Source: Bilabrum cf. latius (lineage: Eukaryota). Taken from it: DNA of 64,000 nt. Position 1 is the first letter of the stretch; every line of letters starts with the position of its first letter. Position numbers and translations under genes: made by a program. The stretch is taken from assembly GCA_965178125.1 (NCBI GenBank), contig OZ237754.1, positions 434,001 to 498,000 of the forward strand. Direction: 5' to 3'. Of this stretch, positions 3,001 through 43,307 are shown one piece after another. Below the pieces are notes generated by a model. It was not told the origin of the DNA and did not search any database. It saw only the letters and a program-made list of their open reading frames with translations.

Positions 3001-6000
3001 GCATGGGCGAGTTGCTGCCCAGCGCGGGGAAGTTCCTCGACACCGGGTCGAACGCAAGCCCCTGGAACGTGGCCCTGGGAACGCACCTCAGGCTGGAGGG
3101 GTTGCTTGCGTCGGAGTCCACCGGGCACTCTTCCCCGCCTACGTAAAGCCTGTCGCCGTCCGCACGCGATCCACGGAAACCCGAGCCATCCACCACAACG
3201 GCAGAAGCAGCGGCAGAGCCACCCAGTGAGCCAGTAATCGGAGCCACAGAATCCATCGACACTGCGTACTCGAACGAGGCGAAGCCGCGCGCAAGTCCGG
3301 CTGCGGTGCTGACGCGAACAGTGCGGGGGCCGAAGCCAGCGGCCACAGTGCACTGCACGATACTGCCGTTGACGATTGCGTCCACGGGGCAGTCGATGGG
3401 AGCGTCCTCCTCGGCCTCAAGAGAGACGGTCACGTCCTGGGCGGAAGCACCCTGGGGCAAGTTTGCGACGGTAAGCGACAGCATGTCGCCATCTGCGCCC
3501 ATGGAGGGCACCGCAGTCGCCGACATGCGCGGAGTCGCCGCCTCAGAGAACGCGACGGTGCACCCACCCTCGCAGTCGCTGGTGGCCACCAGTTCGTCGT
3601 CGCCATCCACGCCCGAGCGCCACGTGACGGTCACAGCAGCAGCCTCGTCGGCGCCAGTGGACCTCCTCATGAGCATGCAGACCAGGCGGGTGGCAGTGGG
3701 GGCATCGCTGCCTTCCGTCTGCACCGCGCAGCTCGTGCCGCCGACAGAAACCTGGTGCCAGCTGCCACTCTCAGCTGAGGTGTCGAAGCCGAGACCAGAG
3801 ATCACCACGCGTGCGCCACCAGCCATGGAGAGCGCAGAAGGCGACACGGACGTCACGCTAGGCCGAGCAGTCACCAGCAGGGCAGCATCCTTGTCAGCTG
3901 CCTGGAATTCACTCGTCCACGCCTCGGCAGAACCCACCCCGGACACGCTGGCACTGATCACATTGTGTCCAACGGCACCGGCGGCCGTCCGGCACACGAA
4001 ACCCTCGGCATCGATCGAGTCGGTGTCCACGCTGCACTCGTACCCAGCCAGCATGGCCTTGGCTCCACGGGTCTGGTCGAAGCCAGCCCCACTGACGGTG
4101 ACGTCTTCGCCGGCGTGAATCTCGGCGGCACCGTTGCCAGTGCCATTCTGCACGGCCACGATCACGGGTGTAGAGGGCAGGGCAAGCGAGGACTCGTACA
4201 TGCAAGTCGAGTCGGTGGTGCACGGCACGGGCACATTGTCCACGAGCACCTGCACTTCCACGCCGAAGGGCGCGGCCACGGTAGCCAGATCATGAATCTG
4301 CGCAGCCGACAAGGGCATTTGGAACACACCGGCCTCGTCCATCGTGACGCGAGCCTCGGCGAGACCGTGCTCCATGTCATCGGCCACGAACAGCACGCTG
4401 GCGCCGTTCGCAGTGCTACCGACCAGGCGGCGAAGGGGCGCGATAGGTCCGACGGCCATCTGGCAGTCCACCTCGTTCTGGTCGCCTGGGAAGCACACGT
4501 CGTTGGCCAGGAACTCAGAGCTCGACAGGCTCACAGTTGCCACCTCGGCACCGTTGATGAAGAGACGAGCAACACCGTTGCCGTACGTGCCGGCCACGTG
4601 AGTCCATACGCCGGTCGCGAGCGTCTCTGAGGCAGTCGCAGCAACGAAGCCAGTGGCGTTGGCAGAGCGCTCGGCCGCGTTGTCCCCCTGGCACAGGGCG
4701 GCGGGGCTGAAGTCGAAGCCCTCCGGCAAGTCGTTCACAACCTGCCCCTGGCGAGCCAGCCTGAACTCGAGCTTGCCGCAGGCAGTTACTCCCAGCGCGT
4801 ACCCCGTCGGCACGCTCGGCTGGTTGAAGCCTCCGAGCCTGGTGCCCACGGACCTGATGATGTCGATGCCCCTAGCAGACGGCACAGCGGCGTCGAGCTT
4901 GACCCAGGTGGCGACCGAGAAGCCGCCCCACTGGGGGTTTGCCTTGGGTGAGTGGCCGGCACGCACGGCTGCGGGCTGCCTGTTGCTGAAAGAGGGATCC
5001 ACAAGGAACTCTGTGTCCAGCAGCTGCTCAGAGGTAGGCCTCTGCCTCCTGACAAACTGAAGGGCTCCGTTGCCGGTCGCCGCGAACGCGCCCATGACCA
5101 CCTTCGACCCTGAAGACGACGCTGTCTCGCTGTCGCCCATGGTGTACGCGGGGCCCTGCCCTGCCCCAGTGGGGGCCTCAGAGCCATAAGAAAGGGCGAC
5201 GATCTGCTGCGAGGTCATGGCAGTGTGGCCAGGGTCCATGGACCAGTACATGAGCGCGCCGCCGTCGAGGAAGGACTCGCGGCGGGTTGGCATGGGGTTC
5301 ACCACGGACGGCGCAGTGAACGCGACGCCATCGTCGGTCCACGAACCCTCCTCCACAGTTGCACTGGCCCAAGGTCGTACTCCCTCAATCGCGAAGGGCG
5401 CATCTGTAGCGCTGCCGTACCACTTCCAGCCAAGGGCACCGTCGCGAGGAGCCACGGGGCGCACGCGCACAGAAATGGTCGACACGTTGGTGCCACGGCC
5501 AGCCAGCCCCTGGCCGGCCAGCTGCACGCGTGCGCCGCCGTGCACGGATGCGGGCGTAGTCGCCGACAGTCCGGACATCTGGCTCACCTCGAGCAGAGCA
5601 TCGAATCGAAGGCCGCCCTGCGCTCCAGAATCAGCGTCCACGACTCCGTCGTTGTTGATATCCACGCCAGCCGTGCCCTTGTCAGATACGATCACGTCGA
5701 CACGAAGGGACCCGGCCCTGCTGGCCGCCCTCGTGATGCAGCGCACCTCCATCTCGTCTGCGTACGTGGTGCGGCAGCCGGTCACGATGTCCTCTCCGTT
5801 CGGACCAGCGCCGTCGGCCACGAGCTGCACTTGGACGTCGCTGTTAAGCGTGCTGGCAGGGGCGAGGCCGCGCCCAGTGATAGACAGCTCGATGCCGCCC
5901 GCGGCGGAGCCCTGCGGCGGGCTCACCGCCGAGATCAACGGGGTGGCCTCGGCGGTCAGCCGGATGGACCTCGTGATCTCGGTGGTGTCGAAGTCACCGG

Positions 6001-9000
6001 CGTCTCCCTCGCTGGCCTCGAGAGACCGGAGCGAGGCCAGGCGACGGGCAGCCGTGGCATTGCCGGTCTGGTTGGCGGCAGCGGCTGCCGCATCATCCCG
6101 CGCCTGCTGCTCGATCAAATCTGCCTCTAGGATGCTGGATGGCGTCACCCACGCGCTGTCCCTGGAGCCGACCTTGGCGATGCTGAGCACGATGGTGGCG
6201 TCAATCTCGGCGTTGCCGCCGGCCTGGGCGGCAACGATGGCAGAGTCGAGCACTGGCAGGCGGACCTTCAGCTCACCATACTCGGCAGAAACGACCTCAG
6301 CGGTTGCGGAGGAGATGCCAGTGGCGAGAGCGAATCGGATCTCGGCAGTCACACCGGCGCCCTCCTCGCTGCCAGGCAGCACGCCTCCACGAAGGCCGCG
6401 ACCGGTCATGGTCACCAGCGTGCCTCCAGCCAGCGAACCAGTGGCGGTTGAGCCGGTCACCTCGGACAGCAGCGAGAAGCTGAGGTCGGTACCAGCTGCA
6501 ACGCCTGCAGCTCCGCGGGCTCCGGCGATCACGCCGACCCCTGCGCCTGCCACTGCAGCAGCGGCGGCAGCAGCATCCTCATCAGCCGGCTCCGAGGTTA
6601 GGGTGCAGACGATCTCGGTGTTTGAGGCGGACGTGACATCGCACCGGAACGGTCCAATGGCAGTGCGGATACCAGACGCAAGCTCGCCCTCCGCAAGCAG
6701 GTTGCTGCCCCCGATTGTGATGGAATCGCCAGCGGCCGCGCTGGCAGGCGACACCGACTCGATCACAGGGGTGGCACCTTCGCTAAGCCTGGCGTTGCAC
6801 CGGCCCTCGATGTCCCAGCCGCTGCAGTGGGCGTGCACGTCGTTCACAACGACGCTCACGGCACCGCTGTTGCCATCGGCGTCAAGGGGCACGGGGATGC
6901 GCAGGAAATCGCGCGGGATGGGGTCCCACTGCATGCGCCCAGTTTGCGTGGTGCGGACGCTGTGCCTTGCCTCGTTGCCTGTGAGGGACGACGAGTCCAC
7001 GCGCAGCAAGGGGACGTCACCGGCCCTGTTCTTGTACGTGACCGTGTACGTAGACCGGGCGCAGCCGCCCGAGAAGCCCACATCCACGTTGCCGCCGACC
7101 TTGCCGGTGGCGATGATGGCAGACCGCAGCGCACCACCGGAGGCGCTGTGCGGCAGGCTGGCCCAAGGAGACCCGTCGAAGCTGATCCGGAAGCTGCCGC
7201 CGCGCGGCTGCCCGGACTCCTACACCACCTCGGCGGCAGAGCCGCCCTCGAGCACGTTGAAAGACTCCTCCACCTGGGGCTCCTGGCCGGGGGCTTCCCC
7301 ACCAGTCTCGGCGGCGGCGGCGGCTCCCGCCCCTCCGTCGTCGGGCTGAATGAGCATGCGCTGCACGGTGATGCCGTTGCTGCCCTGCTCAACGGGCACA
7401 ACCCTGGCAGACAGAGCCGTGTGAAGGTTGCAGTCGTACGTCTGGAGCTCGATCGACACGGTGCGAGAGGGCAGCAGGCCGTCGCCCTCGGTCACGAAGC
7501 TGCTACCCTCGGGGGCGGGGAGCGGCGTGGCCGGCACCATCTCGTTCGCGCGCACGGTCGCCACGCTCACACCGGAGTCCGGCGAGCCGCCCACGCCCAG
7601 CCTGAACCGCATCTCACGGAGAGACTACCTCATGTAGAAGGGCCGGTTGACGATGGCGAACTCATCGATCTGGAAGGGGCCCGAGTTGTACGGCGAGCTG
7701 CCTCCAGCGGTGTGCCAGATGACGGCGTTGATAGAGATGGCCCTGTCGCCCAGCACCTCCTTGATCTGCTCCTCGACGTTAATGCAGTCGTAGTACCACT
7801 TCCCGTCGGCCCTGCCGCCGATGCCCCAGTCGGCCACGCGCGGGTACGAGGGGCGGTCCAGCGGCTGGGTGAGCGTGATGCTCCTCCAGCTCGACACGTT
7901 CGTGTCGATGAGCATGTTTACATGAGTGCCTGCGGGGATGCGCCACGCCATGCACATGAACGGGAACTTGGACACGTCGTAACCACCGCTGGATTGGCCA
8001 GACTCAAGACCGGATCCGCGCTCGAAGTTGCGGCCCCAGCCGCTGCTCATGTGTAGCCCCTTCTTGCCGCAGAACGCCCGGTTCTCGATGGTGGGGTTGG
8101 CACTGTTGCGGAAATGCCAGTCGTCCGAGGACTGCTCGAACGTGTCTCTGTCGTAAAACTTGGTGCCGGCCTGGTCGTCGCGGAAGTAGACCTCGTCGCA
8201 CTCCGCTTCGTTCAGCGTCTCCGCCACGGCGGCAGCGATCTGGCTGGCGGAAGCACCGACCGCCAGGGGTCCTGACGTCTTCTTGGCCACCACGGTGGCG
8301 TTGGGCTCCGCGGCACCTGGCGTGGTGGGGTCGTACGTCGGATCGTCGCTGGCCCTGTGCACAGTGGCAAACTCGATGGCGAACTCGCCCTGCACGCGCA
8401 CCTCGCCCTGGTTCATGGCGATGTTCTCGGCACGGGCCTTGGGCAGCGTGATAGCGTGCTTCTCGAACTGGTTGGTAGCCTCAACCACCAGCTCTTGCTT
8501 CTCGTTCCTGCTGTAGCCGGGTGCCTGGCTCTCGGTCAGGTGCGTGTCAAAGTGCAGGAGACCAACCTTGAAGAAATCGTTGCTAGTGCCATCCTTGTGG
8601 AAGAGCTCCATGAAGTACGTCTCGTTGGCCTTCATGCTGTACCTCGGGGTCCAGCTGCCGGAGCCCCTGAAGGGCTTGTCCGCGGCAATCTCCATGCCAT
8701 TGCGGTGGAAGACCTCAGAGTCGCTGCTCTGGGCGGGACCGATCCGCAGCTGCACGTCGTCGTCCCCGTCGATGAAAAAGCCATACTCTCCGTCGTGCTG
8801 CGGCTGGAACAGCGCCATGCCGCGCTGCAGGAAGTAGTCCTGGCTCTGCCGCGTGTTCTCGAAGCCGGCCTTGTGGGACAGCGCGTCGTACCCTCCGGGC
8901 TGCTGGACTCGGTTCCAGTCGGGGCGGTTGCCCATGCTCCCCGTCTGCCCCATGTTGTCGTATCTCTCGACGCGGGCGCCGGCGGGGCCCATCACGTAGA

Positions 9001-9940
9001 GCTGCCTGGTCTCGGGCTGATCGGCAACGCCCATGGTGCCGGCCTCGTAGGCGACCTGCCTGGCGGTGCGGCCCGTGCGGCGGGTCACGCACTTGACCAT
9101 GGTCGGGGTGGACTCCCTGACGTCACAGGGCACACCCGACACACGCACGGACACCCGGTCCTCGATGTGGGAGAACCCAGACCCGAGGATGGTCACCTCG
9201 GCGCCGCCCAGCAGCGAGATGTCCTTGGGGCTCACAGAGGTCACCACGGGCATCGCCATGTGGTGGTATCTCCGCGACCCGGCTCCGATCCGGAAGGACC
9301 TCGACTCGGGCCACGCGTTCCCGTTCCTGTCATTCACTCGCACGCTGATGTTGTAGAGACCGCCCTCGCGCTCCGAGTCGGGCGCGCACTTGTAGGTGGT
9401 CCAGGAGCCGCTCATGGAGAAAATATCCCCGTCGGCGGCATCTCCGTCGGCCCAGCCGCACATGCGGTCCCCGATGTGGACGTCCACGATCTCCGGGTCG
9501 CTCGTCATGGTGCGCACGCGGAAGCTCACGTTGCTCCCGGTGCCGGACTGGGTGGTGTACACGCTCTGCAGGTTGGGGACATAGCTGTGGTGCCACCTGT
9601 ACCTGCAGGACCCCTTGCACGCCGCGAGGACGCCATTCACGCGCACCTGGACATTCCGGTTCCCCGAGTCGGACCACGAGTGCCACGACCGGACGCGGCA
9701 CTGCAGCCGCGTGTCCGCAGAGTAGAAGGATTCGACGTCGCACGGAATCCCCGCGATCGTCACCACGGGTGTCCGGTCGAAGCCGTCTCCGAGCCCAACT
9801 CCTCGGATCGTGAGGAGGGTCCCGCCCGCCGATCCTCCGATCGACGGCGAGACCGAGTGAATCTCGGGCTCAAGCTGTGCAAACACAGCCACAGACATAG
9901 ATGTCGCCAAAAAGGCAAGCATATTCCCGCGCGAATACAT
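1..9940 (-). CDS. Giant secreted/surface fibrocystin-L (PKHD1L1)-like protein with IPT/TIG repeats, PA14, LamG-like and F5/8-type-C modules; 3'-partial, >3300 aa; in-frame TAG at 7625 and 7220
   Basis: ATG at 9940 with a signal peptide (MYSRGNMLAFLATSMSVAVFAQ), then IPT repeats (PEIHSVSPSIGGSAGGTLLTIRGVG; PVVTSVSPKDISLLGGAEVTILGSGF) and PA14 (ALFQPQHDGEYGFFIDGDDDVQLRIG). ORFs 7625..9940 and 7220..7612 share a frame and are separated only by TAG. The ORF track lists no terminated ORF in this frame below 7219, so it runs to the window edge. It includes LamG-like (GVWTHVAGTYGNGVARLFING) and discoidin (HRALDGNDNTRWVS) motifs. Confidence 0.9.
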
Positions 9941-10769
9941 CGCTGCGATGTCTGTTTTCGTAATTTTTCGTTGCTGTTGAAGTCAAACTTATTGGCCTTC
10001 TCTGTTGCGGTTCGGCCTTGGCTCCTGTCGGCGCCACTTCCTGCGAAAACCATGCAGGGACAGAGAATGGAGGCCACTCGTAGCTGGCAACTTTAAGCAT
10101 TCTAGCCAACAGCAGGAGGGAGAGACAAAAACCAAACGCGTTCATCGCAACCGCGAGACTGCATACTTCGTTCGCAGGCGGCTGTTCCGAGCATGCATGT
10201 CGGAATCTACCATGCACTATATATCTTTATCAATAGTCAGGCATTCAAAAATTAAATCTGGTGCGTACGTCAAAAGGACGCGCCTGATGCAACAAAGCTG
10301 ACGCGGCCGCAGGTGCTCCCGGAGGGAAAGGTAACCGAGCTTGAGCGGAGCGATTGTCATGAGATGACAAACTGCAACAACTAGGATTACCATGCAACTC
10401 AAGCTGGGTTCAGAATGGTGGCAACCGAACACCTGTACGCAAGGTTGCTCGCGCTACTTCCAAACCGCCAAAGGCAGCACGGGATGCTCTGATCTTCCAC
10501 GCGGCACACCCCTCATAGTTTTATAATACTATGAAGCTCACAATTCTCGTTGTCTTGCGGCGAGCCTGATTTCAAGCTCAGCAGCGCAAGGAAGAAACTC
10601 GTATGCAACAGCATTCTCCCCGGCGCGTCGCATTTGTTTGTCGTTGGTTTGTCGCTCTTTCAGCGTCATTTTGGTCGCAAATGGCCAAAAGTACGATTTG
10701 CGATAGTTGCGAACAGTTTGGGTTTGCTTCGGCTGCCATTCGCTCCAACTGTAGGCCACACGCTCAGCC

Positions 10770-13515
10770 ATGCGCTCAGTGTACTCGATTATATCAATTG
10801 CAATTCTAGCAGGGGCGGCATATCTCGCTCAAGCGGATTACATCGAGGATCTTGTGCAGGACCTACCGAAACCCGTGCCTGGATCGAACCCTGTGCAGGC
10901 TGTGCAAGGGCTCGCTTCGAGGGTTCTGGGCGACAGCCAGGCCTCGAAGTTTTAGTTCAAGCTTGGGAATGCCGACCCTTCGGGCCGTGACGTGTTTACA
11001 CTCGCAAACGTGGATGGGCAGGCGTCGAACGGTGTCTCTGGCATTGAAATCACTGGCAACTCTGGGGTAGCCATCGCGAGCGGACTCTTCTGGTACTTGA
11101 AGCACAGAGCGAATTGCACGGTCTCGTGGGGCCTCGACGGGACCGGCGACCAGGTGGACCTCCCCGCTCAGCTCCCATCAGTAGCCGACGATCCGAGCGT
11201 CGCATCGGTGACCACCACGTCTCAGGTCCTATACAGGTACAGCTGGAACGTGTGCACGGAGAGCTACAGCGCCGCGGTAAGTTGAAACCTAGCGAATGGT
11301 AGTCTTGACCTGACGGCTTCTCTTTGCCCACGGCTCTCCGCTTCGCCTCGCCTTTTGCGATCACGATGTCACAGTCTGCCTGAAGTGCGAATTTTTATCC
11401 TAATTGCAACCGCAGTTCTGGGACTGGCCCCGGTGGGAGCGTGAGCTGGACTGGCTTGCCCTGCAGGGCGTGAACCTCCCGCTCGCCTTTGTCGGGCAGG
11501 AGGCCGTCTGGTGGGACTTTTTCAGCTCGCTGGGCGTGAGCGACGAGGGCCTGGACGCGTATTTCTCCGGTCCCGCCTTTTTGGCGTGGCAGCGCATGGG
11601 GAACATCAAGGGCTGGGGCGGGCCCCTGGACAAGGACTGGAGGGAGGGGCAGCTGCAGCTCCAGACCCAGATCCTTCAGAGGATGCGGGAGCTGGGCATG
11701 ATGCCCGTCCTCCCCGGATTCTCCGGACACGTCCCCGCCGGCCTGACATCGGTGTACCCGCAGGCCAACTTCAGCACAACCAGGTCGTGGGGCAACTTCA
11801 ACTCGACGTACAGCGAGGTCACGATCCTGACCCCCGACCAGGACCTGTTCACCACGCTGGGCGCACAGTTCTACCAGTTCCTCACGAAGTACATGGGGTC
11901 CAGCAAGTTCTACAACGTGGACCTGTACAATGAGATGGAGCCTGTGCGCAGCGACGACGCGTACCTCAAGTCGGCCAACCAGCACACCTTCGAGGCCATG
12001 CGCCAGGGAACAGGGGACGATGACGTGGTCTTCGTCATGCAGGGCTGGCTGTTCCACGAGGGCTACTGGACGCCCGAGCGCACCCAGGCTTACCTGAGCG
12101 GCGTGCCAGTGGGCAACATGCTGATCCTGGACCTCAACACGGAGGCGTCGCCCGTGTGGACCAAGTACGAGAGTTTCTACGGGCACGCGTGGGCGTGGTG
12201 CATGCTGCACAACTACGGGGGGAGGAGGGGTCTCTACGGCAACATCTCGAGAATCACCACGGGCCCCATCGAGGACAACCCGCTGCTGTCTTCCAGCGCT
12301 CGCGCCGCCAAGAGCACCATGGTGGCCATCGGCATCACCCCCGAGGCGATCGAGCAGAACCCCGTCATGTACGAGGTGCTCTACGACATGCCCTGGAGAA
12401 CAAAGTCGCCTGCCCCCGCCGACTGGACGCTCGCCTACTCGAATCGGCGGTACGGCACCGGCAGCTCGCCCTCGACCCACGCGAGCGACGCATGGCTGAC
12501 ACTGCTTGAGGGCGCTTACCAGTACCACTGGAACTGGGGCCACACCTCTGACATCGAGTACAGCCCCGCGGTGACCATGTCGGTGAACAAGGACATGCAG
12601 CAGGCGACCGCGTACACAGAGGCGCTCAGGTCCCTCGTGGCTGCGGGCACGTCGGGTCAGGTGAACGCCTCTCACGTGGGTCCGTACAACTACGACGTAA
12701 TCGACCTGGCGAGGCAGGTCACCGCTGACTTCTTCGTCGACGTGCACGACATGTTCGAGCCCGCTTTCTAGCAGTGGCAGATGCAGAACGTCAACAGCAC
12801 CGACACGGTGGCCCCACTCGGTCAGCTGCTGCTGGACATCATCGCGGACCTGGATGGTCTGCTGGGCACCAACGTGAACTACCTATTTGGGGCGTGGCAG
12901 CACGCCGCCAGGAACTCGCCCAACACCAACACGGACGCAGAGCGGGCTAACCGGGAGTACAACGCGAGGAACCAGGTCACCCTCTGGGGACCTTCTGGCC
13001 AGATCAACGATTACGCCGCCAAGCAATGGAACGGTCTGGTGAGCGACTACTATGGGGCCAGGTGGGAGCTGTTCGTGACTACGCTGACCGACGCGGTGCG
13101 CCAGGGAACACACGTGGACTTCAACCAGTACGGGAAAGATTTGCTGGCTCTGGAGCAGAAATGGAACGCGGGGTCCAAGACGTACCCCGACCAGCCCACC
13201 CCGTGGCCCCCCGGTGCCCCCGCTGTCCCCCCGCTGGGGTCAAGCCTGTCGCTGCAGGCAGCCCAGGCCATTTTGGACAAGTACGCCACCGCATCGTCTG
13301 CCGTCCGCGCTCGCTTCACGGAGCTGAAGGGCACGGATTACCCCGGTAACGACATCATCGAGAAGGGCGCTGCGTGGACGACCGACGTGGACCAGCTGAT
13401 GCTGCTGTGCGACGTGAACCCATCATGCAAGGGCTTCAACTCGAACGGCTACCTGAAGAACAGTACCAGCACGAAGGTGTCGTCGCCGGCGAGCTTCTGG
13501 GTGAAGTCGGGCTGA
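10770..13515 (+). CDS. NAGLU: Alpha-N-acetylglucosaminidase (GH89) with a C-terminal PAN/apple-like module; join(10770..11276,11416..13515), 868 aa; TAG at 10953 and 12769
   Basis: Signal peptide MRSVYSIISIAILAGAAYLAQA; GH89 motifs YRYSWNVCTESYS|FWDWPRWERELDWLALQGVNLPLA, GPAFLAWQRMGN, NEM, MQGWLF, WCMLHNYGG, PEAIEQNPVMYE and YNARNQVTLWG...DYAAKQWNGLVSDYYGARW. The pieces join across two TAGs and one GT-AG intron and end in TGA. Confidence 0.96.
11277..11415 (+). other. Spliceosomal intron (139 nt) in NAGLU
   Basis: GTAAGT donor, CCTAAT branch-like site near 11399 and CCGCAG acceptor; removal restores the GH89 sequence SYSAA|FWDW. Confidence 0.93.
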
Positions 13516-23394: not shown

Positions 23395-24588
23395 ATGGCA
23401 GCTGTCGCTCAAGCAGGACAAGATTAGCAGTACGTTGACATCGGGGCAAACCTTTGCGATCCATAGTTTCAGGGTAATTACCGTGGTAAGCAGAAACACG
23501 ACGCTGATTTGGATGTAGTTCTAGATAGATCGTGGAGACAAGGACTGTAGGCTGTCATGATTACTGCTGGAAACTATGAAGAAGGCGTGGGGGCGGCCGA
23601 GCTAGCGAAGACAGACCACAGGCTGTACAGCACGATCGGCGTGCATCCGACCCGAGCTCTTGAGGTTCTCCGCACACCAGAAGCAGTAAAGGGCTCCTCG
23701 AGGAGCGCCGCCGAGCCAGCGGCCGGCTCAGACCTTAGCGTAGAGGACGCAGCAGATGCCTACTGGACACGAATGCGTACTTTTCTCGTCGAGAATGCTG
23801 TTGACCGCGAATCTCCAGCTACCCCCAGCGGTAAATCGGTATCTGAAATGGGGAGACCCACTGTCGTGGCAGTCGGAGAGGCGGGTCTTGATTATGCTCG
23901 ACTGGAGTTCAGCGATAAGAGCTCACAAATGAAGGTGTTCTTGGCGCAGATTGACATTGCGTGCGAGGCCAAGCTCCCCATGTTTCTTCACAACCGGGAA
24001 ACCGGGGGAGACTTCCTGTCAGTCATGAAAGAACACGCCCCTCGGATCGTCACAGAGGCCGGCGGTGCGGTCGTCCACTCGTTCGACGGCACGGCAGAGG
24101 AAGCAGCGGAGCTCATCGGGCTGGGGCTATACATCGGGATCAACGGGTGCTCGTTGAAGACGGAGGACAACGTGAGGGTGGCTGCGGGGATTCCTCTGGA
24201 CAGGCTGATGCTAGAGACGGACTGTCCGTGGTGCGGCGTCAGGCGAACGCACGCGGGGCACAAGCACGTCAAGACGCAGTTCGATGTTGTGAAGAAGCCC
24301 GATCGGTTGAAAAAGGGAGATAACAAGGGGGTCAAGGACAGGTGCGAGCCCGCCCACATTGTCCAGGTGGCTGAGATTGTGGCCGGTGCGCGCGGGTGCC
24401 CCGTACAGGACGTGGCAGAGGCGGCGAGGCTCAATGCCATCAAGGTCTTCCTGCCGTGGCTTGCAGACGAAGTGCCGAAGACAGGGACTGGCAGGGATGC
24501 AGCGGACGAATCCAGAGCAGAAGGTTCACGTGAAACATCAGAGGAGAAGGGGCCTGCTGGCTTGGCCGAGTCTGCTACCTTGAGTTGA
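23395..24588 (+). CDS. TATDN1: TatD-family DNase (TATDN1-like), 397 aa; TAG at 23425, 23464 and 23548
   Basis: N-terminal YVDIGANLCDP*FQGNYRGKQKHDADLDVVL is recovered only through TAGs; other motifs are STIGVHPT, AVGEAGLDYARL, LPMFLHNR, VVHSFDG, GINGCSLKT and MLETDCPWC; TGA stop. Confidence 0.96.
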
Positions 24589-32284: not shown

Positions 32285-32427
32285 GGTCTGACGCACCTCA
32301 TGAGTCATGCACAGTAGCACGCAGTGGCACTGGTCTGACGCACCTCATGAGTCATGCACAGTAGCACGCAGTGGCACTGGTCTGACGCACCTCATGAGTC
32401 ATGCACAGTAGCACGCAGTGGCACTGG
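32285..32427. repeat. Perfect 47-bp tandem repeat, three copies
   Basis: GGTCTGACGCACCTCATGAGTCATGCACAGTAGCACGCAGTGGCACT starts at 32285, 32332 and 32379. Confidence 0.97.
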
Positions 32428-34707
32428 CCAGCTTTGCTAGACCATCTCGGTTGGACTCTCTTCGCTGTCCGGGCCCCAGCCGAGCTGGACCCCTCTGAGG
32501 TACAACGCCTGCAGCACTCTATTTCCGCACGCGATCTACGTGTTGTTCTAGCGGTGAAGGCCTGAGACGTCGAGCCAGGCCCCAACACTTACTTGAAGAG
32601 GAGTCCGTCCGTCATGTAGACCTAAGCGCTCACATGGCGGAAGCCTCGCACACAATTTCTCAAGTGCGAGCTTTGGGCTGGTGCTCCACTCCAGGAAATG
32701 CAGTAGAACCGCCCCGTCCATGTGCAATCTGGCGTTTGTGACATGGGCTGGCTAGCTGCAGGGTGAAGCCAGGTCCTCGGACTGCAACATACCCTTAGTT
32801 GGGGCTACTGGTACCGCCCCGCTTCCTGCGTGCCACGGGCGACACTATGCTCCTGACAAGGCATGCCACTACTTTAGTGCAGGGTCACTGCTGGTAGCTA
32901 GATTGGCGTTATGGATGTTGGCCCATTGGACCAGGTCAGTGCGAGCCATGTACTTTGTGATCTTGCCTGCGGCCTTGTAGCGCTCCTTGGTGTCTGCCGG
33001 CTCGACTATCACCGGCCAGTCCCACGGCCGGCCTTGCTACGCCAACTAGCTTCGGGCGGCGGACATGTCAACCTCAGCTGCCACTCGACGAGCTATCTCT
33101 TGCGATCGGATGGGCGCAATTGCGGAGACCCAGCCTGCTTGCAACCCGGCATTCTCAAGAGTGGCTCTGATTGCTTCCTCCATGGGTGAGTTAGAGCCGA
33201 CACAGCGAGCAATGGGCATGCTCGGGTGCAGCAGGAGCTCTTCAGGCGGACACACTGTGAAGTTGCTTTCAACCGTCGGCTGCAGTGAAGCCAGTGCGTA
33301 CCGATTGGAGAACTCGATCGATGCGGGCAGCAGCTCACCGGCCGTGGTGGCATGCTCATCTGCAGCGGCTGCCAATTTCAGTACGCTGGTTACGTTCAAG
33401 TACTCGTCGAGGTCTTGGTGCACCATCCACTCCGTCAGCGGTTTACCGTACTTGAATAGAAAATGCTGCTGGGCGTGTGGCTAAGCCTCACCAGCGTATG
33501 CATCGTTATCGAGAGAGTGAGCATTATACATTCTGAATGGCCAAGACAGTTCTAGAACTACGGGCTCCTATGAAATCGTCTGGCGCACTTGCGGCAAGCA
33601 CAGCTCAGAGGCCTCCAGTTGCTGCTCGTGGCAAATGTCGCTGCCCATGAGGCCTGCTCCCAGCATCGACGGCGCTTTGGGATGGGAAGGGCCGAGGGGC
33701 CAGACAGCCTTGCAGTATTCATCCCTGGCAGCAGCTGCAATGCAGGCACCTTGCACCCATTCGTCGTCGTTTCGATACGCCACGAGCGCCTCCAGCCCCC
33801 TTGCTGCGTGATACGCCGCCCACGTCGGGAGGTACCTCTCCCTGTCCTCGAGTAGCATCATGGTGGTTGCAACCACGCGGTGGGGCCTCGGGTCTGCTAG
33901 GTGTACATCGTTCGAGGATTGCGTGCCGGTCCCTGGGCTTTTTCTGTGTGCGGTGGATGGTGCGTTTTTCTCTGCCCGAGGCCACAAGCAGTCCCATCCC
34001 GGCGTTCGGACGCACTCATCAGGATTCTCGCGGAAGGCGGAAGCAGCAAAGTTACCTCCTGGTCTGACTGGGGCAGCGCCCATCTACTTCTGCAAAAACT
34101 CGACGTGGAAGAGCCGGAGAGGGTATGTCCGCCCGGCAAACGTGACGCACACGTTGATATACGCCTCAACCGGCAGGTCTCGTCTCAGGTACGCCGGCAG
34201 TCTCCATCTGATCACCTTGGCGGACAAAGCTCGCTAGGCCCTCGGTGGGACAGTACGCATAGACACTGGCGACCCCAGGGAAACCCATTTCGACTCTGCT
34301 CGTTCTAGCCTTGCATACACCAGGAGACCGTCCCAGGTGAAGGGAGCGCGACGGTAGGACGGCAGAATCGCAAACACTTGGCCATCACGGGCAAATGTAT
34401 CGTAGATCAAGTAACGGCGACCAACATTTGCGACATTCAGCCTTGCATCTATTGCCTCGGCTGGCGGCGGATCACCCAGCCGCCACGCACATGATTGCAG
34501 GGGCACCCCGCCTGGACCGCTCGAAAGCTCAGACTAAAGCGCGCCATGTGCAGAATCTGAACACAACATGATTGGTCGAACTCGATGGTACGGGTGACCG
34601 GAATTCGATAACATGCTGGACTAAGTTGCATCAACTACTGCGCCACCGGCGCATAAGCTCTACACAATCACCAGCGTGGCAAAGGCAGCAAGTACACTCC
34701 CTAGCAT
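32392..34707 (-). CDS. Glycosyltransferase family 92 / GT-A-like protein with N-terminal signal or anchor, 771 aa; about 15 TAGs
   Basis: MLGSVLAAFATLVIV* N-terminus with an in-frame TAA just upstream; motifs RYLPTWAAYHAARGLEALVAYRND, GEA*PHAQQHFLFKYGKPLTEWMVHQDLDEYL (DxD), TKYMARTDLVQWANIH and VLLHF; TGA at 32392. Confidence 0.82.
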
Positions 34708-35093
34708 ATGTTACGAGAGATAAATGTTGATACTATTTGCTTCTCATCCAATTAGCTGCTATGTATCCCCGACAAATTGGAGCTGAGCATACGTGCAGTG
34801 AATAAACCAGAATTCGAAACGGCGCACAACTTACCAATTCCGAAAAGCAGGGGATCAGTCGCAGAGCTCTCCGACCTGCTGCGCAACACATTTCAGTCTC
34901 ATATCGGCACCACCAAACCAATTCCTCTCGATGACTTGATGGCCTGCTGCGCGGGAAGCTCGCTGCAGTGCAGCACCCACGGCGGGCCCTGCTCACTGGC
35001 TCGCGTGGCCCATTCTTCATATGAGTCCCACTGCTCCCTGCATCCAACATTTTCCGATAGAGAGAGCGCACTTGCGGCAGTACTTGCAACCCT

Positions 35094-38000
35094 TCAAAGT
35101 TTCGCGGCTGAACTACTGGCAGTCGCCAGATCGACCGGAGAGAACAGGTCAGCCTCCATCCAATGCAATGTCTCTCTCACAGAAGCTGCAAAATGCTCCG
35201 CCAAGCGCTAAGGCACGTGGTGCCCAGACCCCGAAGCGGTCTCGATTACCCCCCTCGTAGATGCCGAGAGCCTGCCAAGTGCACCTGCGTCTCCCACCGG
35301 CGGGGCAGTCGCGCTCACGTGGAAATACAGCGTGGTAGGCAGCACGAAATAGCTCACTCCGATGCCAGGCACCGCGGTTGGGCCGAACCCACCGCCCAGC
35401 GACGCGCAGGCAGGCAGCTCGAGCCCGTAGTTTTCCGCCACTAAAGGGGTCTGCGAGGTCGACAGCTCGAAAGGCAGCTGTGCGGCCCTGCTGTACAGCA
35501 GCGCAAGGCCCGGGTGCTGCGGGCCAACGCCTGCAGCAGCGCCTGCTCCGCTCATGGCAGCTATTTGCATGGCCATGAAGTGCCTGTCCACCCCTTGTCC
35601 CAGCCCCGCCTCGGTCGAGATGACTTTGTGACGCTTGCATGCCGCCTGGAACAGCTGCACCAGACTTTCTCGCGATGGAATACCCTTGGCGTCCGGCTGT
35701 GCGGGGTTCGCACCAGTCGACGCCTGCGATCCCGCATGAGCGACACCACCGCTGCTTCCAGTCGCGACCATTCGCGCAATTGCGGCATCTACGAACACCT
35801 GGGCCTCAGTAGAGCAGCTGCGGATCGTGTCCGTCCTGCCCAGGTGAAACCGCCGCGTGGAGGCAGATTCGTACGTAAGCACAGGGCGCCCAAAGTAACG
35901 CCGCGCCGCGACCTGAAGCGCCATCTACACCAGTGCGTCGGGTGAGCACCGCGCCCTGTGCTTAACTGCCTCCTTGCCCCACCTCAACCATGTCAGCACG
36001 CGAATCCCAACAGAGGCGGCAAGGTCTCTGAAAGATGCAGCCGCTCTTGGTACGGTGAGAAGAAGCCCCCCACGGTTCGTGTCTTCATCGGCAGATATCC
36101 CTGCAGCTGCACCGCTGCTGCTGCCACGGCGACTCGAAAGGGCGATGGTGCCAGATGATGCCATGTCCGACCCTCCGGCACCCGTAGCGCTCTTGGCAGG
36201 CTTGAAGCCGTCCCATTTCAGCCGAAACGGGGCAAAGGGCCCGAGGCTCCTTTTCGCTGCAACGAGCTCTGGCTCCGTCAGAGGCCGGAAGGAGCCGTCA
36301 ACTGCAGCACCATCCTCCGGTAAAGTACTCTAGCTCTCATCTTGGTGCTTCTCTGCACTGGCGCTGGCAGCACTGGCTGTGCCATCCCCGCTCCTGTCTC
36401 CCTGAGCTGACGCCTTGCCGCCGGTCAGTTGTCTGGAGAACATCTTGTGCGCCAGCTACTCACCGAACCGCGCCTTAGCAATACTAAAGAATCCTTCATT
36501 TTCTCTCGAAGCCCACTCTGGGTCGTAGGTCCCTGCTGGCGCGTGCCTGCCCTCGTGCACCACCACGTGCTCCACCACGTGGGACGGTATCGGTGCGTCC
36601 GCGGGCGTGTGCTCGATCGAGGTTCCACCTCGTCCGTTCCGAAACACCACGAAGTTGAACACCGCGTCAGACCAGAGAGAGTGGCCGTTGCCATGCAGCA
36701 TCCAGCGCACGTGTGCGTTCGGGTCGCCCTCTGGAAGCGGGGCCGCGTCGGGAAGGGAGATCACGAAGGCGCTCGATTCGATCCTCCTGAGGTTGTCCGC
36801 ATTCCTGGCAGACTCCTGCTGCAACGCCCGCCTGGCCCTCGCCCACCTGTCTCTCGGCATTGTGGTGAGCAGAGCGATGGGAGGACTGTCAGGGTGCGTC
36901 CACTACGACGGCTTGCCACCGACGCAGCTGAAGCCCACCGTAGATCCTGACTCGCTTCCGTAACCCTCCACCTTTGCCTCCATGGAAGTGCTGCTTCCAC
37001 CACCCGTTGATCGTGACGAGTGGCGCGACCTATGCGGCAGAGCTTCTTCCGCCCTTGTGCTGCTTCCCCCGCTGGACCTGGAGGCATACGGGGACTCGGT
37101 GCACGCCACGCGCACCGCAAGGTGAATCTCCTCGGGGGTGGCTCGCCTGCCGCCACGCTGCACCGGGACGACCCAAATCGCCGTGCCCCGCAGCACAACG
37201 ATATCCAGATCGCCGAGACGGCGCAATAGGGGTTTCACCGTGCGGGAAGGCGTGCCGTCGCACCCAGGCGGAGAAGTCACCAGGCAGAGCCTCCTTGACT
37301 CCTCAGGTCTACCAGCCGTCTGTCCTGCAGCAGCCTCCTGTACAGTCCCCTTTTGCTTGCTCTTTGCCGCAGGCTCCTTCACGATGGAGGGGCGGGTAAC
37401 CTGGATGATGTCTTCTTTCTCCCCTGGCAGCCGGAAACAGCCAAACATGTACCTGTAGCCGTCCATGCAAACGGGCAGGAAGCCACCTTTGGGCGGAGGC
37501 TTGCTGGAGAATGACCCCGCGGGTCTGCTGTCGAGCACCCAGGTGTGACGAGTGACCTTTTGGGGCCTGGTTTGAGCCCCCTTCACAGTGGGGGCCCCTC
37601 CCAGCAGCATGGGCGGGAGTGATTGCGTGTCGATCCGGTCCATCATCTCAAGTGCGGCCCCTGCCATGCCGGCGGCTCGCGCCGCGGGGTCCCTCGTCCT
37701 CGCACCCATCCAGCACATCTCGGTGGAATAGAAGGACGAGTGCACTAGCAGCGGCTTCCGTCCCCTTAGGTAGGCGAACCTCAGCCACGTGTCCCGCAGC
37801 CAGTTGCCCTGCCCACGCATCGAGGGCACGCGCGGAACCTTCGATTCCAGGAAGCGTGCTAGCGAACCTGCCCCCAGCGCCTGGGCAACTGCTCGGACCA
37901 TCCTGCCCGCCAGAGCCGGCTCCAGGGAAGTGGAGCAGTCCCCCCCGGGGTAGAAGCATGATATTGAGGACGACCAGCCTTTGGACATGCCTGCCGCCGT

Positions 38001-38669
38001 GGGTGCGCCGGTCCTGTCGGGGGCACCTGCCCGGGCCATCCAAGAGCTTTCCGCCCTGGGGTGCTCGCCCCAGCGAATGCGAGCAGCTTCCTCGCCAAGC
38101 ACCTGTTCCCTGGCACTGCACAAGGCGGCATGCATCACGGTGGCAGCCGATGGCCCAGCCGCGCTGCCCCCCAGAAATCGCTTCGACAGCTCGACAAGCT
38201 CCGCGTGCTCCTCCGGCGCGACTACCGGCTGTACCGTGCGCAACCACCGCTTCACGGTCTCTCTCGGGTTTGGTAGGGGCAGCGGTGGCAAGAACCGCTA
38301 AAAGTCGAACAGCCTTGCTCGGTCAACGTCCCAGCCCAGGTAGTTCACGCAGAGCCAACGCGCTGCAGCCAGGTCAGTCAGAGATGCCCGTGGACTGGCA
38401 GTCCTACCCAGCAGTGCAGAGACACTTACCTCTGCTGCTATGCGTAACGCAGATGGAACAGCGATGATTCCAGCGCCGACGGCTAGGGAGCCACCGACTG
38501 CGAGCATGGAAGGAGGCTCTGACTCAACCGATGCGCTCCCAGATCCTGATTCTTTGTGTAAAGCACGCCTTGCTTTCGATTTTACGGTTGATACGCCATT
38601 TGATACCAATGGTAAATCAGCAACCGTTGGGTTCGCCTGCATATTACCAGGAGATCGATTCCCGTCCAT
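35094..38669 (-). CDS. Choline/carnitine O-acyltransferase (CPT1/CROT-like) ending in a PTS1 signal (-AKL), 1191 aa; TAG at 38298, 36903, 36456, 36330, 35925 and 35208
   Basis: Motifs LFDF*RFLPPLPLP, NWLRDTWLRFAYL, WMLHGNGHSLWSD, catalytic EHTPADAP, SPDALV*MALQ..LTYESASTRRFHLGRTDTIRS, GQGVDRH, LSTSQ and GGFGP; ends SSSAAKL-TGA. Confidence 0.95.
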
Positions 38670-38944
38670 GCTCGGTCAACGTCCCGCTTCGGCGGTGGAG
38701 TACGTAGCAATCCAAACTCTGCTGCAGGGAAACGCTGCGTAGCAGTCAGCAGAATTCTCGCGCTATAGCGGTCTTGGTGACTCTTTCTGTCGTGTGTTTT
38801 GTCATTTTCGCTGTCCGCCATGCTGCAATCCGGAATTGTTGCAACTTGAAGATCGATTAAAAAACGGACTCCTCGGCGGCGACAACTGAGCAGCGCCAAC
38901 ATTAAGGCTATGACTTCGAATAAAAAATTCGAATGAGTCGCCCC

Positions 38945-38985
38945 GCGAAACTTTTGGTCTCGACCTGATAGCGAAACTTTTGGTC
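38945..38985. promoter_or_regulatory. 15-bp direct repeat GCGAAACTTTTGGTC (x2) in the divergent promoter between the acyltransferase and the mitochondrial carrier
   Basis: Exact copies at 38945-38959 and 38971-38985, 22 nt upstream of ATG 39008. A regulatory role is inferred from position only. Confidence 0.4.
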
Positions 38986-39007
38986 CCAGGCTCGAACAGG
39001 ATCTAAG

Positions 39008-40798
39008 ATGGAAGGACTGACCTATGCGGAGCGGAGAGCACTTTTTACTCAGGTAACAAGCAAATCAAGCTTACGATCGAGCCGAAGCGAGCGAGAGACA
39101 GAGCGAGACGAATCTCTTGCGCTCGTGAAGCTATTTAGATCGATTGATGCGAACCACGACGGCAGCATTACAGCCACGGAATTGCTGAATTGGGTACTGT
39201 CTAGGGATGCGCATGATATAGATAAGGGTCGACTGGGACAGGCTGTAGCTGCTGCCATTGCGCAAGCAGATCGTGACAAAAGCGGCACCGTAGAGCTGGA
39301 CGAATTTGTGCTCGCCTTTCATGCGCTCGGAGCAGCTCGGGACCCAGAGACTGCTCTGCGGACGAGATTTATTGGAAGTCTACAGATTGATGATGGTGGA
39401 GAGGCCGCCCCAGCCGCGATTCCGGCGTCCCCTCGCAGCAGCGCTCCGGAGCCTGGTGGCTCGAGCAGCGAGGCGCGCGGTGGGTCCCTGCAGCCACAGC
39501 CGCTGCCAGCGATTACGAGTGAAATGCTAGGGCACCCCGCCATGTGGTGGGGCCAGCTGGCGGCTGGCATCGCTGCGGGAAGCCTGATGCGCACTGTGCT
39601 CGCGCCGCTTGACGCTGCAAGGCTGGTGCAGCAGGCGTCCCCGGTGGCACGGGGCCCCAGCGGCATGACCGCGGTTGCAACCATGCGGCAGCTCTGGGCC
39701 AGAGGCGGCCTCGAGGCGATCTTCGCAGGAAACCTGTACAACTGCATCAGGTTCGTCCCCTTTTCGGCCGCGTTCGCCATCGCGTTTCCCATCGTGTCCG
39801 ACAAAGTAGAGCCGCTCGTCCGGTGGGCGAGAAACAGGACCAGGGCGTGGGTCAGGGAGAACATGCCCGCGGACCAGGCGCAAAGGGCGGCTGGCTACCT
39901 TCCATCCCCCTCCCTCCTCTCTCGCAACTGCGCGGTGGCGGCTTCGGCGGCCGTGGCCTTCCCTCTGGGCTACCCTCTCGAGGTGGCCAGGCTGGGGCAG
40001 GCCTTGCGTAGGACGGTTCAGGGGAACAAAGTAGGCGCTACTCCAGTGGTGGGCACTGGCCTCAGCGGCAGGATTTCCACCGGACTGGGCATGGTGCGGG
40101 GGCTCGTGGCGCACCGGGGCCCGCTCGCGATGTTTCGGGGCGTGTGGCTGACGGCCGCCTGGGTCGTACCCTCGGTGGCGCTGCAGCACTGGGCCTTCCA
40201 CGCGGTGCTGTTCCGGTTTTCAGCCGCCCAGGAGTGGAAACCCGGACCGGAGGCGTTCGTGCTGTCGGCTCTCATTGCCGCGGGCGCGGCCATCGCCGCC
40301 CTGTACCCCTTAGACACGGTCAGGAAGCAGATGCAGAGGGAAGCGCTCGCGGAGCCCTTCCAGCAGGCTGCCTCGGAGCGTGCTGCGCTGTAGCACGCCA
40401 GTCTGGAGGCGCATGCGGCTGGGCTGGCACTGCCGGCGCAGTGCACATCTCGTCATTTCCCCACTGGCAAGGCTTCGAGCCAGGTTGGTATGTCATTGAC
40501 AGGAGGACGGAAGCACGCGGCGGTAGCGACGAACGCGATTGTCTCGTAGCGACGCGTTCGCACGTGGTTTATGGGCTTGTCATCGCCTGTGCACGAGTGG
40601 AGGCGTGGGATAGGGATTGCTCGAGGCGTGGTGGCCAGGGGAGGACTTGGAGGTCTGTATCGAGGTCTCCCGCTGGCATTCGGTCGCATGCTTCCGAGTG
40701 TGGCAGCCGGGCTCTTGATGCGTGAGTGGATGTTGGAACACGTTGGAAGTGGACTTCAGCCACTTTCGGACAGCGAGGCGTGCAGCGAAACTGGATGA
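39008..40798 (+). CDS. EF-hand mitochondrial carrier (SLC25, SCaMC/ATP-Mg-Pi carrier-like architecture), 596 aa; 2 TAGs
   Basis: EF-hands DANHDGSITATEL and DRDKSGTVELDEF; carrier signatures PLDAAR, PLEVAR and PLDTVRKQMQ. The third-repeat GGLYRG motif lies downstream of TAG 40391 and a second TAG; TGA at 40796. Confidence 0.92.
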
Positions 40799-41203
40799 AT
40801 TGAACCTGCGGTGCGTGTTCAAGTTGTGTACGCCTGAGCTATCAAATGGAGAAGGAACCCATGCCACCGCGTCCAGCAGCTGGAAGTCTTCCGCATGCGT
40901 CAGAATTTGACTTCAAACGAACGACATCACTCCGCGCGAGACGCTGCAGTCAATCGTTCTTCAATTTCATCATCCGCAAACTGTACAGGAACCAAAAGAT
41001 GCTCCTGCATCAAACCATGAAGCGACACGTTCAACGAATCAATAGAATGAGCATATTCTTACAAGATTTGCTGATTTGCGGTGGTATTTGCCGGAGCGCA
41101 GCAGTGTAGTGTCTGTAAGACCGCCTTGTTGGCTGCGACTCGATTTTGGTGACTTCGCAAGGAAGGTTCCCTCGACCACTTGCAATCCGCATCGACTTTG
41201 AAC

Positions 41204-42787
41204 TCACGCAAATCGCACCAGCAACGGGCAGTTTGCCATCCCCAGCTCTGACATGCTAGAATCTGTCTTAACCTCCCCTTTGCTGAGCATTATACCACTC
41301 CTTGCGCCTAGCTCAATCGTGTATGCCGGCACCACCACGGCCGCCGCCGCCCCCACGGCTGGCCCACCGCCCCCCGAGTCAGAGCCCATTGGAACAGAAC
41401 TGCCAGCGCTCCGCACGCCGCCAGCCCTCTTGGTGCCAAATCCAGCATCCAACAGGAGTGCATCTATCCACGCGAAGCACTCCTCGATCGTGCTGCCGCT
41501 GGCAAAGCGTCCCGTTGCTCGCTTCGGCACTGGAGCACCTGCTCGAGCAGCACCGAGCACAGCAGCTTCAGCGGAAAGCGGCACAGCACCACCGGCCGAC
41601 AAGCCGTCCCAAAGCCCTTCAAATCGTGCCTGAACCCTCAACGAACCTTCGCCGACTCCCGAAGCTCCCAACGCGGGCGCTGCCGCTCGGATGGATGCCG
41701 CTGCCGCCGCGCATTCCCCTGGTTCCGCAACGACAATCGCAGGCGCGCCGGGCTCCGATGACTCAGGACCTGTCAAGTCAACCACCTTGCCGCCTGCCAA
41801 TCCATCGGCCCCCATACCCACACCCCCAGACACAGGCCCGGCCCCATGCATCCCGCCGAAGCTGCCGTGCCCTCCGGCACCGCTCTCTCTTGCTCCCCCC
41901 GCCGACAGGGACATTGCGAGGGCCATCTGCAGCTCATCGTCGTCATCATGTCCCCCCTGCATGGCTGCCTGCCCCCCAGCGGCTCCGAATCCCCCACTGG
42001 CACCCGATGCCTCGTACCCCATGCGTCGGTCCGAATCGGCGTCGGTTTCGGCCAGCGACGCACGCAGAGCCGCCTCCAGCTCTGGGTCTGATGCGGCTCC
42101 CCCGCTCGCGCTCCCACCGCCGGAGGTTCCCCCCGCTGGCCTTGGTTTCGATTTGGACGCGAGCAGGGCGGGGATGGAGTGCCACGAGCCCGGGGGGCCC
42201 TCGCTGGTCGCCTCGAAGCTGGGAGGGAGCTTGCCGGTGATCACGAACAAGTTCCAGCCCTCGTTCCGGGCTTGACCCAAGAATGCAGCTAAGTAAAAAT
42301 CACTGAGGTGCTGCGGCTCCTTCAGCAATGAGTTAAGGTTCCAGTAGTGCCCGCCAATCCTCCGAATGCAATACCAATGGTCGCTTGAGTTGAGAATGAA
42401 GGCCTGGTACTTGGTTGGGTCTTTCATGCACGCATACACGGTCTCAGGCGACTCATCCATTCTCAATGAGGGGTATTTCTTGTTGAAGGCTTCCTGCAGA
42501 ACTCCTTGGCTGAAGTTGCCAGCAGAATCGACGTTGAAGCTGTCTTCAGCCAGATACTTGAGCGCATCCGACGTGTCTGCTCCCTAACTAACCATGAGCT
42601 ACCGCTCTCGCTCATCGAGCGCCCGAGCGTACCCTAGCAACTCTCCGACAGTAAATGCTGGAAACTGCACCAGATTATTCACACAATGCTGCGCGCATAG
42701 AGCGGCTACTTGCTTCTCGTGATAGAGCCACGCTGCCTTGCCGCTTGGACTAGAACTTGTTGAGCCTGAGCTGCCGGCTCCCGCCAT
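41204..42787 (-). CDS. ATXN3: Ataxin-3-like deubiquitinase (Josephin domain, two UIMs, C-terminal UBX-like domain), 527 aa; TAG at 42599 and 42584
   Basis: LYHEKQVAALCAQHCVNNLVQ (catalytic Cys), LDERER*LMVS*G, NVDSAGNFS and DHWYCIRRIGGHYWNLNSL (His, Asn); UIMs DPELEAALRASL and DDELQMALAMSL; TGA stop. Confidence 0.94.
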
Positions 42788-43307
42788 AAGTACTCGGCTA
42801 TCTCAATCGTGATTGCGTTCCTGAAAACGGGCTTGGGTGACGAGGTTCCGCTGCCACGTGCTGCGCGGCGGCAACTCGAGATGTGGCGACCAGTCCAGCC
42901 GCGACCAGGGCCGACCAGTGGCAACGAATCGCACAGAGAGGCTGAATACCTTCATACGCTGGCTAGAGTAGAGATAACTATTCCCGCAATGTATCTGCTG
43001 GATCGATGTCTCCATCACGGGGCTAGCGTGTAATTACAGGGCTCGTGCTGGAGATGCCACCCCCGGTGCTACCCGCGGGCTCAAGTTTGATGTGCAGGAT
43101 CAGCGTAGCTAATGCACCTACTAGAGCACAATCTAGTGGAATGTTAGAGTACCCCACCAAGCATGCCAGGCTGGTGTGAGGCCCTCGCTGACCCGTAGGA
43201 TCGGATCAGAGTGCGATTCCGGTTATCCACAGCAAGACCCCCAAAACTGCAACAGAAATGCACAGAGCACTCTGCACTTCTGGTGCAGTATTAAAGCGCC
43301 GCGAAAG

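Follow-up and report, generated by a model that had tools for sequence, protein, structure and literature searches.

In-frame TAG codons at conserved glutamine positions of a carnitine acyltransferase-family gene point to the reading of UAG as glutamine in a GC-rich eukaryote

How can a conserved enzyme be encoded by a reading frame that is crossed six times by TAG, a stop codon in the standard code? The question is raised by a carnitine/choline acyltransferase-family gene on the minus strand of a 64,000-nucleotide stretch of eukaryotic DNA (contig OZ237754.1, positions 434,001 to 498,000; "the window" hereafter means this whole stretch). An original prediction, made from the letters of the window, had noted that two of these TAGs stand where the family carries glutamine and had taken this to identify the amino acid. 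In the present analysis we observed directly that the TAGs lie in frame, that they match Gln columns of the family as well as Gln codons of relatives, and that the genes end in TGA. Judged from the sequence, the organism would read TAG as glutamine, a reading to which we assign a probability of roughly 0.9.

The acyltransferase frame extends from stop to stop (Table 1) and contains TAG at codons 126, 591, 740, 782, 917, and 1156, with no TAA and no internal TGA. Its first ATG is codon 3 (38667-38669), and further Met codons lie at codons 12 and 57. With the TAGs written as X, a masking that we used for the Pfam, PDB, and alignment tests alike, the protein matched PF00755 (Carn_acyltransf) in four stretches with an E-value of 1.4e-96 and a score of 324.8 bits, compared to a cut-off of 22.3. 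A phmmer search against PDB chains returned carnitine acetyl-, octanoyl-, and palmitoyl-transferases together with choline acetyltransferase (E 5e-35 to 2e-24), with carnitine acetyltransferase (CrAT) matched at 5.4e-35. The profile score, the E-H motif, and the STS and YESAS..R motifs all place the protein in PF00755. We take the His of the IEHTP motif (codon 689) to be the catalytic residue of the family, while the STS and YESAS..R motifs presumably lie on the substrate side. The Pfam match and the motifs are shared with CrAT, CrOT, CPT1, and CPT2, and a hydrophobic N-terminus is common to the window protein and its closest full-length relatives; unlike carnitine acyltransferases in general, however, the window protein is approximately 400-500 residues longer, owing to low-complexity inserts that it shares with an orthologue on a metagenome contig (L001).

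To place the TAGs within the family, 1.84 billion representative proteins were searched with the protein as read with TAG as Gln; 2997 matched at E <= 0.001, and the best 150, among which the closest full-length relative is 43% identical, were aligned with the X-masked query. Six short fragments from close relatives (P0003, P0006, P0010, P0012, P0150, and P0151) were left out of the column counts. Both columns named in the original prediction proved to be Gln-dominated. The column of codon 917 holds Gln in 143 of 143 sequences; when the fragments are kept it reads Q 145 and D 2 of 147, with both D residues contributed by misaligned fragments. Among 126 residues, the column of codon 126 holds Q 104, E 11, S 3, H 2, Y 2, D 1, and R 1. 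The two TAGs were found at the positions and in the contexts in which they had been described, and the family motifs that had been quoted for them recur in named CPT1 proteins (YSFQSSLPRLPLP, NSFQTSLPRLPVP, SPDAFVQMALQLA). In the phmmer alignment to PDB chains, X917 also faces the Gln of mouse carnitine acetyltransferase within 'spdafiQvalqla'.

This coincidence would rarely arise by chance. Of 551 query positions covered by at least 100 family residues, five (126, 287, 917, 921, and 1075) are at least 80% Gln, and the only two TAGs that fall in populated positions are both among these five, with a chance expectation of (5/551)^2, or about 8e-5. In 90 of the 102 remaining conserved columns the query has the residue that dominates in the family, indicating that the gene is under family constraint and that Gln is to be expected at both TAG columns. 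Judged by the alignment, the TAGs at codons 126 and 917 thus read as ordinary Gln codons and occupy two of the five positions where the family conserves Gln most strongly. Codons 591, 740, 782, and 1156 lie in variable or inserted stretches where the family columns are uninformative either way; at codon 1156, to which 5 of the 150 family rows align, readthrough is needed to reach the C-terminal AAKL.

Close relatives carry Gln codons opposite TAG. A fragment that is 90% identical over residues 786-1137 (P0003) has Gln at 917, and the orthologue on L001 (672 of 1139 aligned residues identical, or 59%) ends in TGA and likewise contains six in-frame TAGs, which are placed elsewhere in the gene. 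The two regions are syntenic, since on L001 the same EF-hand mitochondrial carrier gene adjoins the acyltransferase gene in the same divergent arrangement. A codon-by-codon comparison of both window genes with their L001 counterparts gave a table of 24 TAGs, a TAG being counted as well aligned if at least 6 of the 15 surrounding columns were identical. Nine TAGs were well aligned, and six of these face Gln codons (five CAG and one CAA), in both directions: L001 has CAG opposite window codons 126, 917, and 1156, the window has CAG and CAA opposite L001 codons 226 and 1119, respectively, and one TAG of the L001 carrier gene faces a window CAG. The remaining three face CAT, GGC, and GCA. With TAG counted, Gln codons account for about 4.5% of window codons. 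CAG and TAG are one transition apart, so the pattern fits synonymous exchange. Fragments cut at TAGs are also found in public protein collections (P0003, P0006, P0010, P0012, P0150, P0153, and P0288), and four of them (P0006, P0010, P0012, and P0150) derive from the L001 gene, which standard-code gene calling has severed at its TAGs. The Gln codons of P0003 and L001, the L001 TAGs that face CAG or CAA, and the NAGLU column described below lend the original claim that TAG means Gln backing beyond the two sites on which it was built.

In-frame TAGs could also mark a pseudogene, an assembly artefact, or introns left unspliced, and the window does contain at least one spliceosomal intron, in the NAGLU gene (Table 1). 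The acyltransferase frame, however, extends over 1193 codons without TGA or TAA; the TAGs at codons 126 and 917 lie inside ungapped conserved motifs, and the catalytic and substrate motifs are intact. Moreover, the architecture of the gene is kept in L001 at 59% identity with the TAGs elsewhere, and the sequence is identical in the five public sequencing runs that hold all sampled words. We therefore regard an explanation of this kind as extremely improbable and the acyltransferase gene as intact and probably functional.

The reading of TAG as sense extends beyond this gene. In the window, the number of residues in frames of at least 300 codons rises from 13,381 under the standard code to 30,045 when TAG is read as sense, compared to 13,729 when TAA is read as sense, and with TAG as sense long frames tile both strands. 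Seventeen frames, comprising 19,089 codons, contain 129 TAG, 563 CAG, and 167 CAA codons, and all 15 complete frames terminate in TGA and none in TAA. In the acyltransferase gene six of approximately 35 Gln codons are TAG. Pfam recognised eight genes in the window (Table 1), and nine TAGs lie inside the best Pfam stretches, in six genes. The NAGLU gene carries a single TAG (codon 456), in a column in which Gln outnumbers every other residue (44/118, from 120 relatives), and the three closest relatives that span the site (77%, 51%, and 48% identity) have Gln there, while a 97%-identical database protein terminates exactly before the TAG.

The same match of TAG to Gln columns would result from a standard code combined with U-to-C editing that converts UAG to CAG in the mRNA, and of the nine public runs, from five studies, that contain all or part of the stretch, none is recorded as RNA. 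We compared contigs of runs X5-X8 over 10.6 kb (32300-42900). The X5 contigs are interrupted at the intergenic gaps 38788-38896 and 40796-41149, and their depth differs from gene to gene (19.5, 9.1, and 78), suggesting that they are transcript-like. X5, X7, and X8 each contain a contig lying nearly end to end on the Josephin gene (~41170-42798). The X5 piece that covers the acyltransferase gene (33856-38787) includes all six TAGs with no differing letter, the only differences anywhere on the 10.6 kb being at 33811-33828 and 41815. In looking like RNA, the X5, X7, and X8 contigs argue against TAG-to-CAG editing, an argument to which we give little weight. Database gene calls of relatives that were made from such contigs likewise stop at TAGs (P0288 and P0153), and we know of no precedent for editing that would affect approximately 129 sites across 17 frames and change the first base of a TAG codon every time. 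Taken together, these points make editing very improbable in our view.

Several results weigh against reading TAG as glutamine. The majority of TAGs in the window occupy variable, uninformative sites, and this includes those that appear in the PDB alignments of the TatD, Josephin, RCC1-like, and permease proteins, where they face M, K, S, N, G, P, and S; Q stands opposite them twice, in HERC1 and in an Entamoeba TatD-family protein. In TatD, compared with 120 relatives, the TAG at codon 77 ('DP-TAG-F'; alignment query position 23) lies in a Met column (M 102/119, Q 0) and is the one clear mismatch to Gln in the window; the TAG at codon 105 lies in an E/D column (E 42, D 38, and Q 13 of 119), and the third TatD TAG is in a variable column. 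The RNA nature of the X5, X7, and X8 contigs is a software guess, and X5 is labelled 'probably DNA'. ARAGORN found no tRNA genes in the window or in L001, and eRF1 is not in the 64-kb window. Finally, the absence of TAA from the frames (0 compared to 129 TAG, where approximately 38 would be expected at the CAA:CAG ratio if TAA were also Gln) is partly a product of construction because frames are cut at TAA, and, given 15 genes, TAA may still act as a rare terminator.

Alternatively, TAG could be ambiguous or could encode an amino acid that is not Gln (Glu, Leu, Tyr, Ser, Lys, or pyrrolysine): Glu ranks first at TatD codon 105 and second at acyltransferase codon 126, TatD codon 77 is Met-dominated, and UAG is reported as Leu, Ser, or Glu in other eukaryotes (PMC11687900, PMC5304391). 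We nevertheless consider a non-Gln residue improbable. Over the six populated columns from the acyltransferase, TatD, and NAGLU, the log-likelihood for the TAG residue is -13.1 for Gln and -22.8 for Glu, which comes next at approximately 9.7 natural-log units lower, with K, R, M, H, V, and S worse still. Column 917 contains nothing but Gln, and in the orthologue comparison two-thirds of the well-aligned TAGs stand opposite CAG or CAA. In the original prediction the two acyltransferase sites had been held to argue against Leu, Glu, Tyr, Trp, and pyrrolysine. At codon 917, Leu, Tyr, and Trp are indeed excluded, along with Ser and Lys, but Glu stays a weak second at codon 126. Nothing suggests pyrrolysine, although an alignment alone is insufficient to exclude it or another non-standard residue.

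The window is best explained as nuclear DNA of a GC-rich, gene-dense, intron-poor eukaryote in which cytoplasmic translation would read UAG as Gln; UGA terminates every complete gene seen, and UAA stands inside no reading frame. From established organisms in which UAG encodes Gln, we infer that a tRNA-Gln with anticodon CUA would decode UAG and leave UAA unread, and that eRF1 would be altered such that UAG is no longer recognised. We also tried a code in which UAA and UAG both encode Gln (UAR = Gln, NCBI table 6) and rejected it on the TAA counts given above; independently of frame cutting, reading TAA as sense merges no frames.

Nuclear genetic code changes are rare. A code with UAG as Gln and UAA not as sense is of the NCBI table 15 type, and the window shows TAG in conserved genes, TAG facing Gln, and no TAA as sense. 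The codon change itself is known, and the window would add a case. UAG alone is reported to have been reassigned to Gln in only a handful of lineages, namely Iotanema, Protocruzia, and two phyllopharyngean ciliate groups (PMC11687900). The fornicate Iotanema spirale reads UAG as Gln and keeps UAA as a stop (Panek et al. 2017, PMC5304391). The window is alike in that UAG alone appears to be reassigned, to Gln, and UAA is not sense, but Iotanema, a metamonad, is anaerobic and terminates mainly with UAA, whereas TGA ends all 15 complete frames of the window, mitochondrial carriers and a carnitine acyltransferase are encoded there, and the organism is taken to be aerobic. Among ciliates, a UAG-only change to Gln is described for Protocruzia tuzeti and two phyllopharyngean lineages (McGowan et al. 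2024, PMC11687900), in which the same codon was reassigned and a tRNA with anticodon CUA that leaves UAA unread has likewise been proposed. In contrast to these, the 64-kb window combines 61% GC with dense genes on both strands and a GT-AG intron, and single-gene trees group it with no named ciliate, the tree sets having contained none. UAR = Gln codes, listed for many ciliates, some Ulvophyceae, hexamitid diplomonads, Streblomastix, and Amoeboaphelidium (PMC11687900, PMC5304391), resemble the window in the use of TAG as Gln and of TGA as terminator and differ from it in that TAA is not sense in the window.

Where the organism belongs was addressed with two gene trees. In the NAGLU tree (61 rows, P0288 left out), the window protein and its 77% relative (P0287) are sister to a clade with Cafeteria, with a Shimodaira-Hasegawa-like approximate likelihood ratio test (SH-aLRT) support of 98, whereas the TatD tree (48 of 121 rows used) places the window on a long branch (1.44) and is uninformative on lineage. 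The NAGLU tree is the one gene tree behind the suggestion that the organism is a bigyran stramenopile, which we treat as only a lead. In a literature search that covered work other than subscription journals and very recent reports, we found no description of UAG as Gln for any stramenopile or for an aerobic protist with a GC-rich genome. It is possible, though on balance doubtful, that the window represents a lineage with no published code change, in which UAG would have come to mean Gln independently, outside ciliates and metamonads, in an aerobic, intron-poor organism with 61% GC where TGA is the sole terminator seen and TAA is perhaps unused. If such a lineage were real, it would provide a GC-rich, TGA-terminating case for testing models of stop-codon reassignment, on which it would bear because TAG would not be expected to disappear under AT pressure ('codon capture') from a GC-rich genome; the case would gain further interest if the change proved to have arisen independently in a new supergroup. 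The organism may be culturable because five studies hold its DNA. In practical terms, standard-code annotation of this organism breaks most of its genes, and its relatives are stored as TAG-cut fragments.

Table 1. Positions of the acyltransferase features, the NAGLU intron, and other genes in the 64-kb window
Feature	Position	Strand	Remarks
Acyltransferase gene	35094..38675	-	Stop-to-stop frame, 1193 codons plus TGA; matches Pfam PF00755 and PDB CrAT
TGA terminator	35094-35096	-	End of the 1193-codon frame
-AKL C-terminal end	35097-35105	-	Same tripeptide in P0004; -SRL in P0005 and P0007
TAG, codon 1156	35208..35210	-	37 codons 5' of TGA; L001 CAG; P0151 Q ('GSPQFLARKF')
LSTSQTP motif	35445..35465	-	'elstsqtp' faces CrAT 'nlstsqvp' in PDB-chain alignment
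TYESASTR motif	35853..35876	-	Faces CrAT 'tyesaslr' in PDB-chain alignment
TAG, codon 917	35925..35927	-	SPDALV-TAG-MALQVA; column Q 143/143; mouse CrAT Q; P0003 Q; L001 CAG
TAG, codon 782	36330..36332	-	Lineage-specific insert; 2/150 rows aligned; L001 AAG (Lys), context weakly aligned
TAG, codon 740	36456..36458	-	Lineage-specific insert; 2/150 rows aligned; L001 GCA (Ala)
IEHTP motif	36603..36617	-	His is codon 689; 'siEHtp' faces 'vyEHaa' of mouse CrAT
TAG, codon 591	36903..36905	-	Variable site just 5' of conserved W..DSPP; 12/150 rows aligned, no majority; L001 GGC (Gly)
TAG, codon 126	38298..38300	-	LFDF-TAG-RFLPPLPLP; column Q 104/126; L001 CAG; P0004, P0005, and P0007 Q
Spliceosomal intron in NAGLU	11277-11415	+	139 nt, GTAAGT...CAG; joins ...CTESYSAA to FWDWPRWERELDW
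TatD TAG, codon 77	23464-23466	+	'DP-TAG-F'
Giant TIG-domain protein	2-9982	-	Pfam-recognised
NAGLU			Pfam-recognised
Cationic amino-acid permease			Pfam-recognised
TatD			Pfam-recognised
RCC1-like protein			Pfam-recognised
Acyltransferase			Pfam-recognised; positions above
EF-hand mitochondrial carrier			Pfam-recognised
Josephin protease			Pfam-recognised

The window has a GC content of about 61%, ranging from 57 to 67% along the 64 kb, and its genes are eukaryotic, nuclear in type, densely packed, and distributed over both strands. A scan of the window with Rfam at gathering thresholds gave no matches. Exon 1 of NAGLU, in frame 10527-11276, encodes a signal peptide and the N-terminal domain, and exon 2 begins at 11416; the intron between them indicates that the genome is intron-poor and not intronless. 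Database relatives of NAGLU without the N-terminal domain may lack this exon.

The acyltransferase ends in ...AAKL, and among full-length homologues P0004 ends in AAKL while P0005 and P0007 end in SRL. We take these -AKL and -SRL ends to resemble peroxisomal targeting tripeptides, which suggests that the acyltransferase is a peroxisomal enzyme despite its hydrophobic N-terminal segment. A scan of genome contigs with the acyltransferase protein yielded nine pattern matches and no relatives. On L001, codons 223-233 of the carrier gene (minus strand) form an alternating run of TAG and GCN (X-A-X-A-X-A...) without a counterpart in the window; if TAG is Gln, the coding sequence contains a (Gln-Ala)n microsatellite at this place.

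The giant TIG-domain protein is encoded by an open frame of more than 3326 codons that runs off the start of the window, has a third-position GC content (GC3) of 0.81, and includes at least six IPT/TIG domains, one laminin-G-like domain, and one F5/8 type C domain. It contains only 2 TAG codons, compared to 113 CAG. By contrast, a frame of 772 codons at 32395-34710 (minus strand), which has no Pfam match, contains 15 TAG, 9 CAG, and 13 CAA codons, indicating that TAG use varies strongly between genes; this frame may be partly non-coding. Within it, at 33894-33980, the X5 and X7 contigs skip 85 bases, the ends of which read TG..GA and are not GT-AG on either strand, and the X8 contigs have loose ends at both places. 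Another X5 contig aligns to 33781-33858 with six differences. The skip may represent an indel variant or a repeat inside the frame.

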